The notes beneath the pieces are model-generated. The model was given only the letters and a program-made list of their open reading frames with translations. It was not told the DNA's origin and did no database searches. DNA of 20,000 nucleotides from an uncultured virus (IMG/VR IMGVR_UViG_3300044491_001791) (Duplodnaviria > Heunggongvirae > Uroviricota > Caudoviricetes), in IMG/VR virus record IMGVR_UViG_3300044491_001791. One strand, written 5' to 3'. Positions 1,376 through 5,749 of the stretch are shown piece by piece (within the stretch, counting starts at the first letter, position 1; the number at the start of each line of letters is the position of its first letter). The position numbers and the translations under genes are program-made.

Positions 1376-1941
1376 TCTGTTTCTCCTGGTTTTCTAACAG
1401 TAACACTAATGTTACCTGATATAGCGACTCTGTCGTGGGTACAATTTTGTACGCCTACTTTATGACTAACATTGCCTGGAAAGATTACCATTAATCCGGT
1501 AAACGGTTTTACAGTATAATTTGCTGTTGGAAATTCTAATGCGGCACAGTGTTCACAAGCATTCACATAGTAAACAAAACTATATGTTGCAGGCCAGTGT
1601 GCGTGTTCAATTGTATGATGTCCTTTATCATTTTTATAAACCATCCCCCAACAGTCTACAATATTAAATCGTAGCATTTCTGCACCACGTTGGCTTAATC
1701 CTTCGATGCTATTAATACATTGCATAATTGCAAAATCACAAATACGTTTGAAGTCTGGATCTTCATACATTGTAAATTCAGTCATATCTGCTTTTACATT
1801 ACTTCTATGTCCTACTACATCTCCGTAACTTCTAATCTTTTCTTCAAGTATAGGATTCAAGGTTTCACTGTTAGTGTATTTTACCATAGTAATATCACAC
1901 GGTTCATTCGCTTGTGTCTGATGTACTTTAAAGTAATCCAT
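1372..1941 (-). CDS. 2OG-Fe(II) oxygenase superfamily protein (TIGR02466-like, HxH type)
   Basis: WGMVY...HAH...SFVYYV...GLMVIFPGNVSHKV...RVAISGNI gives a double-stranded beta-helix with HxH...H iron ligands and a terminal Rxx(I)S. Confidence 0.85.
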   Translation of the reverse strand: MDYFKVHQTQANEPCDITMVKYTNSETLNPILEEKIRSYGDVVGHRSNVKADMTEFTMYEDPDFKRICDFAIMQCINSIEGLSQRGAEMLRFNIVDCWGMVYKNDKGHHTIEHAHWPATYSFVYYVNACEHCAALEFPTANYTVKPFTGLMVIFPGNVSHKVGVQNCTHDRVAISGNISVTVRKPGETE

Positions 1942-2276
1942 TAACCTGTCCTTAGTAATATATGATATCCGTATTCTGTTTTAATTGGAAAAGTAAGCAT
2001 TTCGTCTTTGTTAATTTGACTAATAGGTTTTGCTATTTCGTATTCCATTTCTCCTGGATAATCAAACCAACCTAAGTCTCCACCGTTCTTTGCAGATATT
2101 CTACAAGCACTGTGTTCTTTAGCGGCTTGTTCAAATGTAAGAAGTCCTTCTATAATGTCTTGAATAATAAAACCTGCTTCTTGTTCTGCCGCAGGGGCTG
2201 GACGATTGCTTGATTGTGCAGTAGCACCTTCGTGACTGATTAGAATATGACTTGCTCTAAGTTTCTGAATTTTCAT
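1941..2276 (-). CDS. Parvulin-type peptidyl-prolyl cis-trans isomerase (PpiC family)
   Basis: [30 protein letters not shown] and [10 protein letters not shown] motifs. Start moved to ATG 2276 (MKIQKL), which has a GGAG Shine-Dalgarno (SD) upstream. The track's extension to 2435 lies inside the ferredoxin gene. Confidence 0.92.
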
Positions 2277-2619
2277 CTGTTCTCCCGCCCGGCTTTTCAG
2301 AAAAGAATCTTTCAAACTTGTTAGGTTCGTTTGCCATTGCTTCAGCATCGGAAGGAACATCTTCTTCACGTTTTTCAGTAATATTTGGCCACTTGGCTGA
2401 ATACTCTTCGTTAATATACAACCACTTGTCTGCACCTTCTACGTTGTCTGGAATAATAGCATCTACAGGACATTCTGGCTCACAAACACCGCAGTCAATA
2501 CACTCGTTGGGGTTAATAACAAGCATATTTTCACCTTCATAAAAACAGTCTACTGGACAAACATCAACGCAGTCCATGTGTTTACATTTAATACAGTTTT
2601 CGTTTACAAGATATGTCAT
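2257..2619 (-). CDS. fdxA: 7Fe ([3Fe-4S]+[4Fe-4S]) ferredoxin, FdxA type
   Basis: [47 protein letters not shown] has the Cys spacing of Azotobacter FdI / alphaproteobacterial FdxA, with a WPNIT C-terminal extension. Strong SD AAGGAGG upstream (about 2633-2639). Confidence 0.93.
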
Positions 2620-2637
2620 ACTATTAGTTATTCCTCC

Positions 2638-3558
2638 TTAGTATGGCCGCTTCCAAGACTTGGCAAATTCATATAACATTTGATCGTATTTTTCTTCTTT
2701 TATAATTTCTTCATAATCAGGTTGACCGAGTACATCTTGCAAATTCCAATACTGTGGATAACTTACACCTGCTTTATTTCTATCTTCAGTATCTGCAACA
2801 TATTCGTGGTCGATATGTTTACACAAATCTTCTGTGTCTTTGTTTAAATTTTCAGTTGTACCTAAGTACCACATATTAACTTTTAATACTTCTATAAGCA
2901 TATCAAATAGATTATCGTCCATTTGAATGTTATAAAACCAATCTGGCCAAGTTTGCGGAATAAATTGTCCTTGGTGTGTAGCAAATGTATCGCCACCTTC
3001 AAATTTACTGTACTGCTTAAACATTGCTCGTGTATCATCAAACGCATAAAAACATTTAAGTAACCATTTACATTGTAAGTTTCGTTCAGCACTGTTGTCA
3101 AGTCTCCATGTATACAAACTATTGTAGTCTGTTGCTTGTCTATTATAGTAACGTGCATATGTGTCACTTACAGGACTTGAACTACTAAACATATGAGTAT
3201 CTTGATTTAATTGTGCAAGACCGAATCGATAGTTAAAACTACTTAACAGTCTTGGAACAGGTTCCCTAACATGAGCCATATAATAAGGAACACGTGGTTC
3301 CTTTAACCAAAAATGTGTATGACTATATGTACTGTGCCCTGAAATAATTTTTAGTTGTTCGTGTTGTTCTTTTGTTCTATTTTGTAGTAAAGGAATATTA
3401 TGTTCTACAAAAGAACCACCGAATCCATCTACCCAATTAAAATGTTTTAACCAACGATCGTTTTCTCTATGTAAATGGTATCCTACCTTCCAGTTGAAAC
3501 TTGTTCCACCAGTTTTAGGAATATGAAAGTATATGTAAATAGGTTTAGGATTGGTCAT
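2638..3558 (-). CDS. PAPS-dependent sulfotransferase family protein
   Basis: 5'-PSB loop YFHIPKTGGTSF, an ISGH motif, 3'-PB motif VREPVPRLLSSFNY and a C-terminal D..LYEFA. Confidence 0.85.
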   Translation of the reverse strand: MTNPKPIYIYFHIPKTGGTSFNWKVGYHLHRENDRWLKHFNWVDGFGGSFVEHNIPLLQNRTKEQHEQLKIISGHSTYSHTHFWLKEPRVPYYMAHVREPVPRLLSSFNYRFGLAQLNQDTHMFSSSSPVSDTYARYYNRQATDYNSLYTWRLDNSAERNLQCKWLLKCFYAFDDTRAMFKQYSKFEGGDTFATHQGQFIPQTWPDWFYNIQMDDNLFDMLIEVLKVNMWYLGTTENLNKDTEDLCKHIDHEYVADTEDRNKAGVSYPQYWNLQDVLGQPDYEEIIKEEKYDQMLYEFAKSWKRPY

Positions 3559-3955
3559 TTCTCATCTTCTCTCTAATTTTTGTAGCAGAAATAGAATGTA
3601 TTTCTTCTCCTAAATCATGTTGAGTAAACGTATAACCTACTCCGCGGCCATAACTAATATCAACAATATTAGGAACAAGCATAATAATATAATCTTTGTT
3701 GTAAACAAATCCTGCGTCACTTAGGCCGTTAATAATATTAGTTTTAACAGTTTCAAAGTTAAATGGATTATCGTTTTGCACTAATGCAGTTCTGCCAGCG
3801 CCTGCATCTTCGCCAACAATACCACCTACATCTCGAACCATAATACATACTTGACCAGTTTCAGCAAGTGCTTTTTTAAACAATGCTGTATGTCCGTCAT
3901 GCCAAGGTTGCCAACGTCCTAACATTTCTGTAGTTGGCTTTTTGTAATCAAACAT
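3545..3955 (-). CDS. Small HxGH-superfamily nucleotidyltransferase (NMNAT/cytidylyltransferase-like)
   Basis: GRWQPWHDGH signature, DNPF motif and C-terminal ISATKIR. Overlaps both neighbours. Confidence 0.88.
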   Translation of the reverse strand: MFDYKKPTTEMLGRWQPWHDGHTALFKKALAETGQVCIMVRDVGGIVGEDAGAGRTALVQNDNPFNFETVKTNIINGLSDAGFVYNKDYIIMLVPNIVDISYGRGVGYTFTQHDLGEEIHSISATKIREKMRNDQS

Positions 3956-4400
3956 TTTCTGTACCTTTGTTGTGTGCTGTTAAGTTTCCGAACTTTGCTA
4001 CAAGTTCTTGTTTAACTATAAAGACCCAAGTATCGGCATCCATATGTGTTACCTTAACGTCATATTCTTCAAGGGGTTCAAATATTTTATTTGTATCCTC
4101 AAATCTTCCTTCTTTAATAGTATCCATCCACACAGTAAAGTCTGCATTGTATTCTTTTCTTGCATACTTTGTTGGACAAATAAAATCTGCAATAACTATT
4201 CTATTTTCTAATACTGCTTGTGCAGATAGTAATCTCATTCTTTCTGCTTGACGCATTCTACCTGCTTCAGAAAAATCCCAATCATTTGCTTCTTCTCTAA
4301 CTTTATCTGCATTCAAATGAACAGCATTAATCATCGGAGCAAGTTTTTCTGCTAATGTAGTTTTGCCTGAGCCGGGTAATCCGCAAATTAGTATTTTCAT
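3948..4400 (-). CDS. cysC: Adenylylsulfate (APS) kinase-like P-loop kinase, short and divergent
   Basis: GLPGSGKTT P-loop. LNADKVR, DFSEAGRMRQAERM and DFICP align with CysC LDGDxVR, GFSxxDRxENxRR and SFISP. Only 150 aa, with a shortened lid region. Confidence 0.75.
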   Translation of the reverse strand: MKILICGLPGSGKTTLAEKLAPMINAVHLNADKVREEANDWDFSEAGRMRQAERMRLLSAQAVLENRIVIADFICPTKYARKEYNADFTVWMDTIKEGRFEDTNKIFEPLEEYDVKVTHMDADTWVFIVKQELVAKFGNLTAHNKGTENV

Positions 4401-5305
4401 AGTCTTGCTAATCTAATCATAGTTGCCGCAAGATTAATTTCTGGATCAGCAACAAGTGTATGATCTACAAGTCCTTGTTTAATAATTAGAATTGCATCAT
4501 CTTCTTTGTCACCAAACAATGTAACATTATCATACAGCCATTTAAAAATATCTTCAACTTCATCAGGTCGCACTTGACTACATACAAGTTTTCTTGCTTG
4601 ATTAATTTTACCTGCCTTGAATAGTTCTACCATTTCAAGTTTATAGTCTGCTTCACCTGTGTCAGCATCTTGGGGTTTTTGTAATACACCATCAACACTG
4701 TTCATTTGTACCATATTGATACATTTACGCAAGTCAGGATATGTTGCTTTTACATAAGTGTCAAGTGTGTCTAAATCAGGTTGTATACCTTCTGTAATTA
4801 AGATTTCAGCAACACGAGCAGTAAATTCTGTTTGATCAATTCGTTCAATATGGAATCCTTGACATCTACTGTGTAGTGCAGGAATAATTCTGTTAGGATA
4901 GTTACAAGTAAGTATAAAGCGAGAAGTAGTATGATACTCTTCCATAACACCACGTAGTGCCGCCTGTGCATTGGGTGAAAGATAGTCTGCCTCATCAAGT
5001 AATACAACTTTAAAATCTCCAAATGGAATCATTTGTACAAAGTTTACAATCTTATCACGTACATCTTCTACGGAGTTTGTACGACTTGCGTTAATTTCTA
5101 ATACGTCAAGATCATTAAGTTCAAGTTCATTAAATAAAATTTTAGCAAGTGTTGTTTTACCAATACCTGCATTACCTGAAAATAATAAGTGTGGAATAGT
5201 GCGTTCTTTGATCCATTGTTGCACTTGTTTACGTTGATGTTCATCTCTGAACACATAACCGTCTACTGTTTTAGGACGATATTTTTCTACCCAAAGTTCT
5301 TTCAT
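4397..5305 (-). CDS. Sliding-clamp loader AAA+ subunit (RFC small subunit / T4 gp44-like)
   Basis: LWVEKYRP, Walker A GNAGIGKTT, EINAS, Walker B LLDEAD, AQAALR, SRC and DLRKCIN motifs. Confidence 0.96.
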   Translation of the reverse strand: MKELWVEKYRPKTVDGYVFRDEHQRKQVQQWIKERTIPHLLFSGNAGIGKTTLAKILFNELELNDLDVLEINASRTNSVEDVRDKIVNFVQMIPFGDFKVVLLDEADYLSPNAQAALRGVMEEYHTTSRFILTCNYPNRIIPALHSRCQGFHIERIDQTEFTARVAEILITEGIQPDLDTLDTYVKATYPDLRKCINMVQMNSVDGVLQKPQDADTGEADYKLEMVELFKAGKINQARKLVCSQVRPDEVEDIFKWLYDNVTLFGDKEDDAILIIKQGLVDHTLVADPEINLAATMIRLARL

Positions 5306-5715
5306 TTACCTGCCTCTACTATTCGTTGCCTCAAATTAGTACTACTAAATGAGTGTTGCCTTTTATTATAATATATTTCTATACCTTTGTCAACACAAAT
5401 CTGCTTACCAGTGAAGTCTTTTGATTTATATTCTTCACCAATAAATCTTTTATGAATTGTGTATGTAAGAAGTATGTCTTCCAAATCTTTTTCAGTCGAA
5501 TAAGGAATGATTTCGTTAACATACTTACAACCTGCCAATTGAACATAACGTTCAAATACAGATTGGATTGGTTTATTCTTATCTGGTCTATCAACAGTTG
5601 GATCTGTTTGTAGTCCAACTATTAAATGATTACAGTTGTCTGATGCTTCTTTAAGCATAGCAACGTGTCCAGTATGGAATAAATCAAATGTGCTAAATGT
5701 AATACCGACTGTCAT
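5302..5715 (-). CDS. Glycerol-3-phosphate cytidylyltransferase-like protein (TagD family)
   Basis: STFDLFHTGH, LIVGLQTD, KPIQSVFER and RQHSFSST motifs. ATG 5715 is preferred over GTG 5730 because the GTG sits inside the promoter. Confidence 0.88.
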   Translation of the reverse strand: MTVGITFSTFDLFHTGHVAMLKEASDNCNHLIVGLQTDPTVDRPDKNKPIQSVFERYVQLAGCKYVNEIIPYSTEKDLEDILLTYTIHKRFIGEEYKSKDFTGKQICVDKGIEIYYNKRQHSFSSTNLRQRIVEAGK

Positions 5716-5721
5716 AGTGTT

Positions 5722-5749
5722 ATTATACACTAATTGCTATAAAAGTCAA
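5722..5749 (-). promoter_or_regulatory. sigma70-type promoter, probably leaderless
   Basis: Minus strand reads TTGACT-N16-TATAAT, then 6 nt, then ATG 5715. No SD is present. Confidence 0.7.

Follow-up and report, generated by a model that had tools for sequence, protein, structure and literature searches.

A two-gene unit that may constitute a miniature synthase for 3'-phosphoadenosine 5'-phosphosulfate (PAPS) was found in the DNA of an uncultured virus (IMG/VR record IMGVR_UViG_3300044491_001791), of which a stretch of 20,000 nucleotides (nt), hereafter the window, was analysed. An open reading frame (ORF) listing of the window confirmed three overlapping ORFs on the minus strand, with the coordinates reported in an initial annotation made from the sequence. 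These encode a P-loop kinase of 150 amino acids (aa) that resembles a trimmed adenosine 5'-phosphosulfate (APS) kinase (KIN, 3948..4400 (-)), a 136 aa HxGH nucleotidyltransferase that is a candidate non-canonical ATP sulfurylase (NT, 3545..3955 (-)) and a 306 aa Sulfotransfer_2-type sulfotransferase (ST, 2638..3558 (-)). The stop of KIN and the start of NT overlap by 8 nt (3948..3955 (-)), the end of NT and the start of ST overlap by 14 nt (3545..3558 (-)) and the clamp-loader gene upstream (4397-5305) shares 4 nt with the KIN ORF. Because all three ORFs have several or many homologues, they are genes, not frames open by chance.

KIN and NT are one conserved unit, fused or overlapping, and this unit is not phage-specific but is also present in SAR11, SAR86 and some Bacteroidota. 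With a probability of roughly 0.6, the pair acts as a mini PAPS synthase in which NT is a non-canonical ATP sulfurylase and which supplies the phage sulfotransferase. In this pathway NT would use ATP as the AMP donor to convert sulfate to APS, a reaction that could also run in reverse. KIN would phosphorylate the 3'-OH of APS, a step supported by fold, motifs and context, and ST would use the resulting PAPS to sulfate an acceptor, probably a glycan.

Conservation of the kinase-nucleotidyltransferase pair

A single PHROG family (phrog_10255) was found to span both proteins, with KIN matching positions 2-115 (E 1e-35) and NT matching positions 124-228 (E 1e-22). Among cultured phages, Sano and DLP_6 have KIN and NT fused, and phages of Xylella, Stenotrophomonas, Xanthomonas and Clavibacter encode the pair as one protein of ~245 aa. 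A search for longer proteins returned 462 matches, and most of the best 120 were 247-292 aa in length and carried PF01583. Gene order was counted in the 80 best IMG/VR loci of NT (phage loci) and in 80 loci kept from bacterial contigs (cellular loci). KIN lies directly upstream of NT in 69 of the phage loci and precedes NT in 74 of the cellular loci, while the 8-nt overlap between the two genes recurred in 13 out of 14 phage and cellular loci checked.

The arrangement resembles PAPS synthase (human PAPSS1, 1x6v) and the fusion of Sat and APS kinase from Aquifex (2gks), where an APS-kinase-like kinase is likewise joined to a nucleotidyltransferase of the HxxH/HxGH fold. The kinase is N-terminal in PAPSS1, as it is in the fused relatives of KIN-NT, and KIN aligned to PAPSS1 residues 53-229 (Z 17.1) and NT to residues 406-599 (Z 5.9). 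In contrast to both proteins, NT is without detectable sequence likeness to the Sat domain and about a third of its size, and KIN and NT of the window are separate genes that overlap and are not fused. No paper describing the KIN-NT unit or a small ATP sulfurylase was found in the literature library that was searched.

In four metagenomic proteins (P0003, P0010, P0025, P0047) NT is attached to a fragment of a UvrD-like helicase, a Cys/Met pyridoxal phosphate (PLP) enzyme, a PLP decarboxylase or ClpX. These proteins are likely chimeras of assembly or gene calling and were left out of the NT alignments, although a PLP decarboxylase is also found next to NT in Bacteroidota loci where NT stands alone (L147). 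In T4-like loci, which are among the phage loci with a lone NT, the start of NT is overlapped by a 75 aa DUF2061 membrane ORF (E 2.5e-23; L074, 5781-6008 (+)), and no kinase was detected nearby.

Predicted activities of the encoded proteins

KIN matched the Pfam family APS_kinase (PF01583) at 36.5 bits, above the cut-off of 21.1, over profile positions 5-92 of 152 only, that is about the first 60% of the profile of the CysC family. A model of KIN was built from 67 sequences (predicted local distance difference test (pLDDT) score 92.4) and compared with 48,161 chains using VIA-align. Ranks 1-5 were all APS kinases, at Z 16.7-18.4 and a root-mean-square deviation (rmsd) of 1.7-2.4 Å over 124-142 aligned residues, namely the CysC APS kinases of Aeropyrum (2yvu, Z 18.4) and M. 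tuberculosis (4rfv, 18.3) followed by 2gks (17.2), 1x6v (17.1) and 3cr8 (16.7). Among other kinases, gluconate kinase reached Z 15.9 and shikimate kinase 14.4, and dephospho-coenzyme A (CoA) kinases and human nicotinamide riboside kinase reached 10.9-11.3 and 10.9, respectively. The best matches of the family profile in the PDB were also APS kinases, with 2yvu first at E 1e-10.

The P-loop and residues D32, R35, F43 and R48 of KIN are invariant or nearly so across the family. In a HMMER alignment these four residues coincide with the DGDNIR / GFS / DR block of Penicillium APS kinase, of which we take the D..R / F / R / N residues to bind APS. Compared to CysC APS kinases, KIN thus keeps the fold, the P-loop and the aligned D..R / F / R positions and differs in its 150 aa size, in a shortened lid and in a Gln in place of the Asn of the ENIRR block. 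Public annotations name KIN adenylyl-sulfate kinase. Judged by its predicted fold, motifs and context, KIN is predicted to be a trimmed APS kinase, and the CysC-like assignment of the initial annotation was borne out by the five nearest structures. SAR11-type KINs (L124, L104; 7514-8008) have an insertion of ~27 residues at the position of the shortened lid that is absent from the KINs of the window and of SAR86.

NT carries the motifs GRWQPWHDGH, with HxGH at residues 19-22, and ISATKIR (122-128). NT scored below every curated cut-off checked in Pfam and NCBIfam, reaching 17.8 bits for CTP_transf_like (cut-off 21), 23.2 bits for the nicotinamide mononucleotide (NMN) adenylyltransferase (NMNAT) model PRK01153 (cut-off 127; E 4e-5 over residues 11-40 only) and 16.8 bits for TIGR01527 (cut-off 181.2). 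The second half of NT scored ~0 bits or below against NMNAT, the half corresponding to the NMN substrate being unaligned and ~30 residues shorter. No match to PF01747 was obtained for NT in the Pfam search, and the Sat part of 2gks scored 0.4 bits. Public annotations of NT disagree and name flavin adenine dinucleotide (FAD) synthase, cytidyltransferase or phosphopantetheine adenylyltransferase (PPAT).

The nearest folds to the NT model (pLDDT 86.8) in VIA-align were NadM (2qjt, Z 10.4), PPAT (9.8) and the MJ0541 NMNAT (1f9a, 9.1), and Thermus ATP sulfurylase with APS (1v47) was found at rank 7 (Z 8.2, 117 residues, rmsd 3.3 Å). Foldseek returned no match for NT at E <= 0.001, the best being an archaeal NMNAT at 1.8e-3, and a search of the ESM Atlas gave only viral 'cytidyltransferase-like' clusters. 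The modelled fold is that of the right superfamily, which is shared with Sat, and does not name the substrate.

NadM and the archaeal NMNATs (Francisella 2qjt; MJ0541 1f9a) are the best matches of NT in both sequence and structure and have the motifs GRxQPxHxGH, NPF and SxTxxR in common with it. NT differs from these enzymes in a shorter and unaligned C-terminal half with its own YGRxVGY block, in an N-terminal FDxxKPT block that is also NT-specific and in a gene context of sulfur, not of nicotinamide adenine dinucleotide (NAD). Further blocks that are invariant within the NT family are an RD after strand 2, NPF and VPNI, and the invariant residues of NT include R41-D42, Y102-G-R104 and Y108. 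Sat-type ATP sulfurylases (PF01747; Thermus thermophilus 1v47) have the same superfamily fold and, as proposed here, would have the same chemistry, but the matched Sat chains are 343-512 residues in length compared to the 136 aa of NT, which instead carries the GRxQPxHxGH signature of NMNATs. The sequence comparisons place the descent of NT with NadM-type NMNAT and not with Sat. The description of the 136 aa protein as an NMNAT-like HxGH nucleotidyltransferase therefore stands, as GRWQPWHDGH is present and NadM is the nearest fold, whereas no kinship with Sat was found at the level of sequence.

ST passed the cut-off of PF03567 (Sulfotransfer_2) marginally, at 22.1 bits versus 22. The HIPKTGGT loop, which forms the 5'-phosphosulfate-binding (5'-PSB) motif, G74-H75 and the R98..R103..S106-S107 block, which forms the 3'-phosphate-binding (3'-PB) motif, were invariant in 10 out of 10 aligned relatives, in agreement with the earlier description of a sulfotransferase with both PAPS-binding motifs. 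Nine ST homologues were found in the protein search, and their precomputed domains included PF03567 in 4/9 and PF00685 in 1/9. A profile of ST relatives matched HS6ST3 at E 1.3e-4 and HS2ST at 6.7e-4. The heparan sulfate 2-O- and 6-O-sulfotransferases (4ndz, 5t03) belong to the same Pfam family and align with ST in the 5'-PSB loop and the 3'-PB block, but the matches are weak (E about 1e-4) and the ST subfamily is small. No homologue of the window ST was found among cultured phages. From its motifs and these matches, ST is predicted to be a carbohydrate-type sulfotransferase.

Cellular carriers and sulfate-activation genes

At least 542 relatives of NT were found in bacterial genome contigs. 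Most of the 80 cellular loci belong to SAR11-type alphaproteobacteria, Pelagibacteraceae among them (63-71% identity), or to SAR86 (52-61%), where one locus is on a complete chromosome; a few belong to other bacteria, including Marinoscillum-like Bacteroidota. In an NT tree calculated by a quick method, SAR11 (99) and SAR86 (97) each formed a clade apart from a paraphyletic phage grade, and the tree gives no direction of transfer.

In order to describe the gene neighbourhood, neighbours within 5 kb were clustered over the 80 cellular loci and then labelled by family. AprA and AprB were each found in 17 loci, CysQ in 13 (TIGR01331, 285.9 bits, cut-off 228.8), Xsc in 7 and a YeiH-type putative sulfate exporter in 5. 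A Sulfotransfer_3 gene was located directly upstream and on the same strand in 10 loci, and the polysaccharide genes Wzz / UDP-glucose dehydrogenase were found in 5-6 of the 80. At least one of AprA/B, CysQ, Sulfotransfer_3 and YeiH was present in 42 loci. CysQ would clear the 3'-phosphoadenosine 5'-phosphate left after PAPS has been used by a sulfotransferase. The apr block was found downstream of KIN-NT in some genomes and upstream in others, and the linkage of apr to KIN-NT has therefore survived rearrangement. A conserved 116 aa ORF with no family match (L124, 8393-8743 (-), and 17 other SAR11-type loci; 18/80) always adjoins aprA, between the apr block and KIN-NT. A 265 aa membrane ORF that is weakly QmoC-like follows aprB in SAR11-type loci.

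Among 40 cellular genomes with the unit, Sat was found in 2, CysD in none and AprB in 9, and in 8 of these 9 genomes aprB was within about 2.5 kb of the unit. On the complete SAR86 chromosome (G068), two genes matched Sulfotransfer_3 strongly (at 160.8 and 148.6 bits), KIN was the sole APS_kinase match and no Sat, CysD or AprB was found. Four Bacteroidota genomes have NT without KIN; neither Sat nor CysD was found in any of the four, and a canonical CysC is present in three of them, in one case as a cysC-cysQ operon.

The SAR11 order was sampled with 121 genomes that were at least 80% complete, one unpublished genome (G159) being counted. Of the 121 genomes, 99 gave strong matches to the unit, 7 matched weakly and in the kinase only, and 15 had no match. 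The pair is near-universal among the SAR11-order genomes searched and is no invention of phages. Sat was found in 5 of the 121 genomes and AprB in 99. Unit and AprB were both present in 95 genomes, the unit only in 4, AprB only in 4 and neither in 18 (Fisher p = 3.6e-14, without correction for phylogeny). Most SAR11 are described as being without ATP sulfurylase in PMC10356861. In 40 long phage contigs with the unit, canonical Sat was found in 0/40 and a PAPS_reduct/CysD/CysH-type match above cut-off likewise in 0/40. The gene context together with the scarcity of other candidates suggests NT as the sulfate-activating step.

Sulfotransferases in phages carrying the unit

The association of the unit with sulfotransferases in phages is strong at the level of the genome. 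Sulfotransfer_2 was found in 19 of the 40 long phage contigs with the unit, of which 17 were above cut-off, mostly at a distance of 8-16 kb. Conversely, the unit was found in 15 of 29 long contigs picked for a Sulfotransfer_2-like gene (13 of the 27 that had not been seen before) and in all three records with a completeness of 90% or more, although in G217 the match is confined to the kinase part. Co-occurrence of the pair with sulfotransferases, as anticipated in the initial annotation, was thus observed in both directions. A complete 201-kb phage with the unit has a Sulfotransfer_3 gene, and both the unit and a sulfotransferase are present in phage DLP_6. In one contig (L228) a fused KIN-NT of 289 aa is followed after 1 nt by a 213 aa sulfotransferase, a layout that a second contig shares, and in three further contigs the unit and a sulfotransferase are within 0.6-1.6 kb of each other.

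The three genes of the window do not form a conserved cassette. The window ST type was found in 2 IMG/VR contigs only, and ST follows the KIN-NT pair in just 1 of the 80 phage loci, in a relative that is 96% identical to the window. In the second relative (L085) ST is located between the clamp loader and ferredoxin with KIN-NT 2 kb away. In four syntenic relatives (L011, L022, L035, L070) NT is directly followed by ferredoxin with no ST between, which makes ST an accessory insertion. The earlier picture of a self-contained three-gene pathway was corrected on this point.

In one phage locus (L086, 654-3589) a sulfotransferase is flanked on one side by a GT8 glycosyltransferase and on the other by a protein that combines a cytidylyltransferase-like domain and a mannose-6-phosphate-isomerase-type cupin in one fusion. 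The region looks like a phage glycan-tailoring cluster, and these neighbours hint at a glycan acceptor. In Xylella phage Sano, gp33 and gp34 (L001, 4960-5999) are directly upstream of the fused KIN-NT and comprise a 195 aa protein with a sub-threshold Sulfotransfer_4 match, located two genes before the unit, and a NADAR-domain protein (E 6e-26).

Assessment of the proposed pathway

The initial annotation held up in part. Its central proposal, that the small NMNAT-like enzyme next to an APS-kinase-like kinase fills the missing sulfate-activating step, passed all comparative tests that were run. In its favour are the fusion to KIN, the APS-kinase fold of KIN, the aprBA, cysQ, xsc and Sulfotransfer_3 neighbours and the scarcity of Sat and CysD, whereas no likeness to Sat was found in sequence. 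In the phage the likely purpose of the pair would be to secure PAPS during infection of hosts with minimal sulfate-activation capacity.

A number of observations weigh against this proposal. An NT-only profile of 17 sequences, searched against solved chains to E <= 10, matched NMNATs only (1f9a at 3e-5 and 2qjt at 1.7e-4, over residues 11-83) and returned no Sat chain within that limit. The structural comparison was divided, as the Sat-superfamily fold was recovered (Z 8.2) but NMNAT (10.4) and PPAT (9.8) ranked higher, with other Sats at Z 5.5-6.0. KIN falls far under the equivalog cut-off of NCBIfam apsK (TIGR00455; 28.8 versus 138.7 bits), most of the lid region is absent from it and its invariant Gln51 aligns with the Asn of the ENIRR block of APS kinase. 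NT was without a detectable KIN in 11 of the 80 phage loci.

The distribution data are also not uniformly favourable. Two of the 40 cellular genomes (G045 and G080) have both Sat and the unit, and 4 of the 5 Sat-positive SAR11-order genomes have the unit as well, so that there is no strict replacement of one by the other. Most of the cellular genomes are single-amplified or metagenome-assembled genomes and most of the viral contigs are fragments, which makes absences weak evidence, and the genome and locus counts are not phylogenetically independent. The enrichment of sulfotransferases was argued from two reciprocal searches without a baseline rate for unrelated viral contigs, and no unit was seen in 14 of the 29 contigs selected for a sulfotransferase. 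One genome that is 92% complete (G033, 342 kb) has the unit and none of the three sulfotransferase families tested, Sano has no sulfotransferase above cut-off (Sulfotransfer_4 only, at 20.7 versus 22.8 bits), and cyanophages carry sulfotransferases without the unit. Finally, APS made from sulfite by AprBA would together with the kinase alone suffice for PAPS, leaving the role of NT unexplained in genomes of this kind.

The last point leads to the alternative that survived best, which we nevertheless consider unlikely. In it KIN is an APS kinase, AprBA or the host delivers the APS from which PAPS is made and NT does another job in APS/PAPS metabolism. NT could, at the same low odds, break down APS, as an APS:phosphate or pyrophosphate adenylyltransferase that ends AprBA sulfite oxidation, act on another sulfonucleotide or serve as a non-catalytic partner. 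Such a role would agree with the presence of AprB in 95 of the 99 SAR11-order genomes with the unit, with the closeness of the unit to aprB in 8 of the 9 AprB-positive genomes among the 40 and with the co-existence of Sat and the unit in some genomes. AprBA is also able to supply APS without a sulfurylase, as cited in PMC10356861. SAR86 and Bacteroidota among the 40 genomes are difficult to accommodate, as they show no AprB, Sat or CysD and yet keep NT with KIN or CysC, plus sulfotransferases. The 40 long phage contigs with the unit, in which no Sat was found and aprBA was not searched for, point in the same direction. The version in which NT converts APS and pyrophosphate to ATP and sulfate is no true rival since it is the same enzyme run backwards.

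Less probable still is that the pair makes another 3'-phospho-adenylylated or nucleotide-activated small molecule, in parallel to PPAT and dephospho-CoA kinase or to HldE. By this account, which is equally doubtful in its details, NT would add an adenylyl group to a phosphate ester, and either the precursor or the product would be phosphorylated by KIN. In the structural comparison of NT, PPAT came second (Z 9.8), and the Gln for Asn exchange and the shortened lid of KIN could mean a substrate other than APS; the disagreement among public annotations of NT also leaves room for this account. Dephospho-CoA kinases, however, scored Z 10.9-11.3 against KIN compared to 16.7-18.4 for APS kinases, and the neighbours of the unit are aprBA, cysQ, sulfotransferases and xsc and not CoA, flavin or heptose genes.

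The split NadR-like NAD-salvage pair that the initial annotation named as its alternative, with NT as NMN adenylyltransferase and KIN as a ribosylnicotinamide-type kinase, is highly improbable, for although NadM and archaeal NMNATs are the only significant sequence matches of NT, NadM is its best structure (Z 10.4) and the family profile reaches into the kinase domain of NadR (E 7.9e-5), the NMNAT likeness is limited to the ATP-binding half (residues 11-83) and leaves out the shorter substrate half, human nicotinamide riboside kinase (Z 10.9) is far under the APS kinases, the neighbour clusters that were labelled around the 80 cellular loci include no NAD-pathway gene and the fused order of kinase to transferase is opposite to that in the NadR structure (transferase part 64-233, kinase part 170-250).

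The reading of KIN-NT as a mini PAPS synthase can be extended to its cellular carriers, and we give the extended form about an even chance. NT would then represent a third class of ATP sulfurylase, ~130 residues in length and derived from NMNAT, and would together with the trimmed APS kinase activate sulfate in SAR11, SAR86 and some marine Bacteroidota. In SAR11 it would close the reported gap after AprBA, and diverse large aquatic phages would carry the pair to provide PAPS to their own glycan sulfotransferases.

If NT activates sulfate, some of the most abundant ocean bacteria and their viruses would rely on an enzyme class not recognised so far for a basic step of the sulfur cycle. This would explain how SAR11 finish AprBA-driven sulfite oxidation without Sat. 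It would also explain the source of PAPS in SAR86, which has sulfotransferases but in which no Sat, CysD or AprB was found. Viromics papers reportedly list viral cysC auxiliary genes, and these would need to be re-read as half of a two-enzyme unit. Large phages would furthermore be expected to sulfate something, probably glycans.

Other features of the window

The window is phage DNA and belongs to a large aquatic phage. Family searches identified a gp44-type clamp loader, MazG, a second cytidylyltransferase-like gene, a ferredoxin, a parvulin-type peptidyl-prolyl isomerase (PPIase) and a 2OG-Fe(II) oxygenase, and a GroES-like gene and baseplate and tail-fibre proteins are also encoded. Two more ORFs were labelled from their translations by eye only and are presumably ThyX and dCMP deaminase. 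The 96% identical relative is an IMG/VR contig of 43.9 kb that is rated 12% complete, from which we infer a phage genome of ~360 kb. A nucleotide search of cultured phages with the window gave only remote matches to the clamp loader, the ferredoxin and the cytidylyltransferase.

DNA near-identical to window positions 2400-4600 was found in 14 runs labelled as estuary, marine, lagoon, freshwater or aquatic metagenomes, and three runs were unlabelled. At least 9 studies contributed to these runs. As the near-identical DNA spans estuary, marine, lagoon and freshwater runs, the phage lineage appears to be widespread across salinities. In four RNA libraries, contigs with exact matches were found to the KIN/NT junction, to portions of NT and to the 3' part of ST, leaving much of ST uncovered; these contigs do not prove transcription, as carry-over of DNA is possible. 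The 8-nt overlap of KIN and NT is spanned by them without an indel.

A second small HxGH nucleotidyltransferase of 142 aa is encoded directly upstream of the clamp loader (5302-5730 (-)) and resembles RfaE domain II / TagD (CTP_transf_like 7e-13, phrog_7878 2.5e-33). Together with NT, this gives the window two small genes of the cytidylyltransferase fold within 2 kb. The ferredoxin ORF (2257-2619 (-), Fer4 + DUF3470) overlaps the PPIase ORF (1941-2435 (-)) in the long extension at its N-terminus. Because the rotamase domain begins only at residue 54, the true start of the PPIase is probably further downstream than the start of the ORF.

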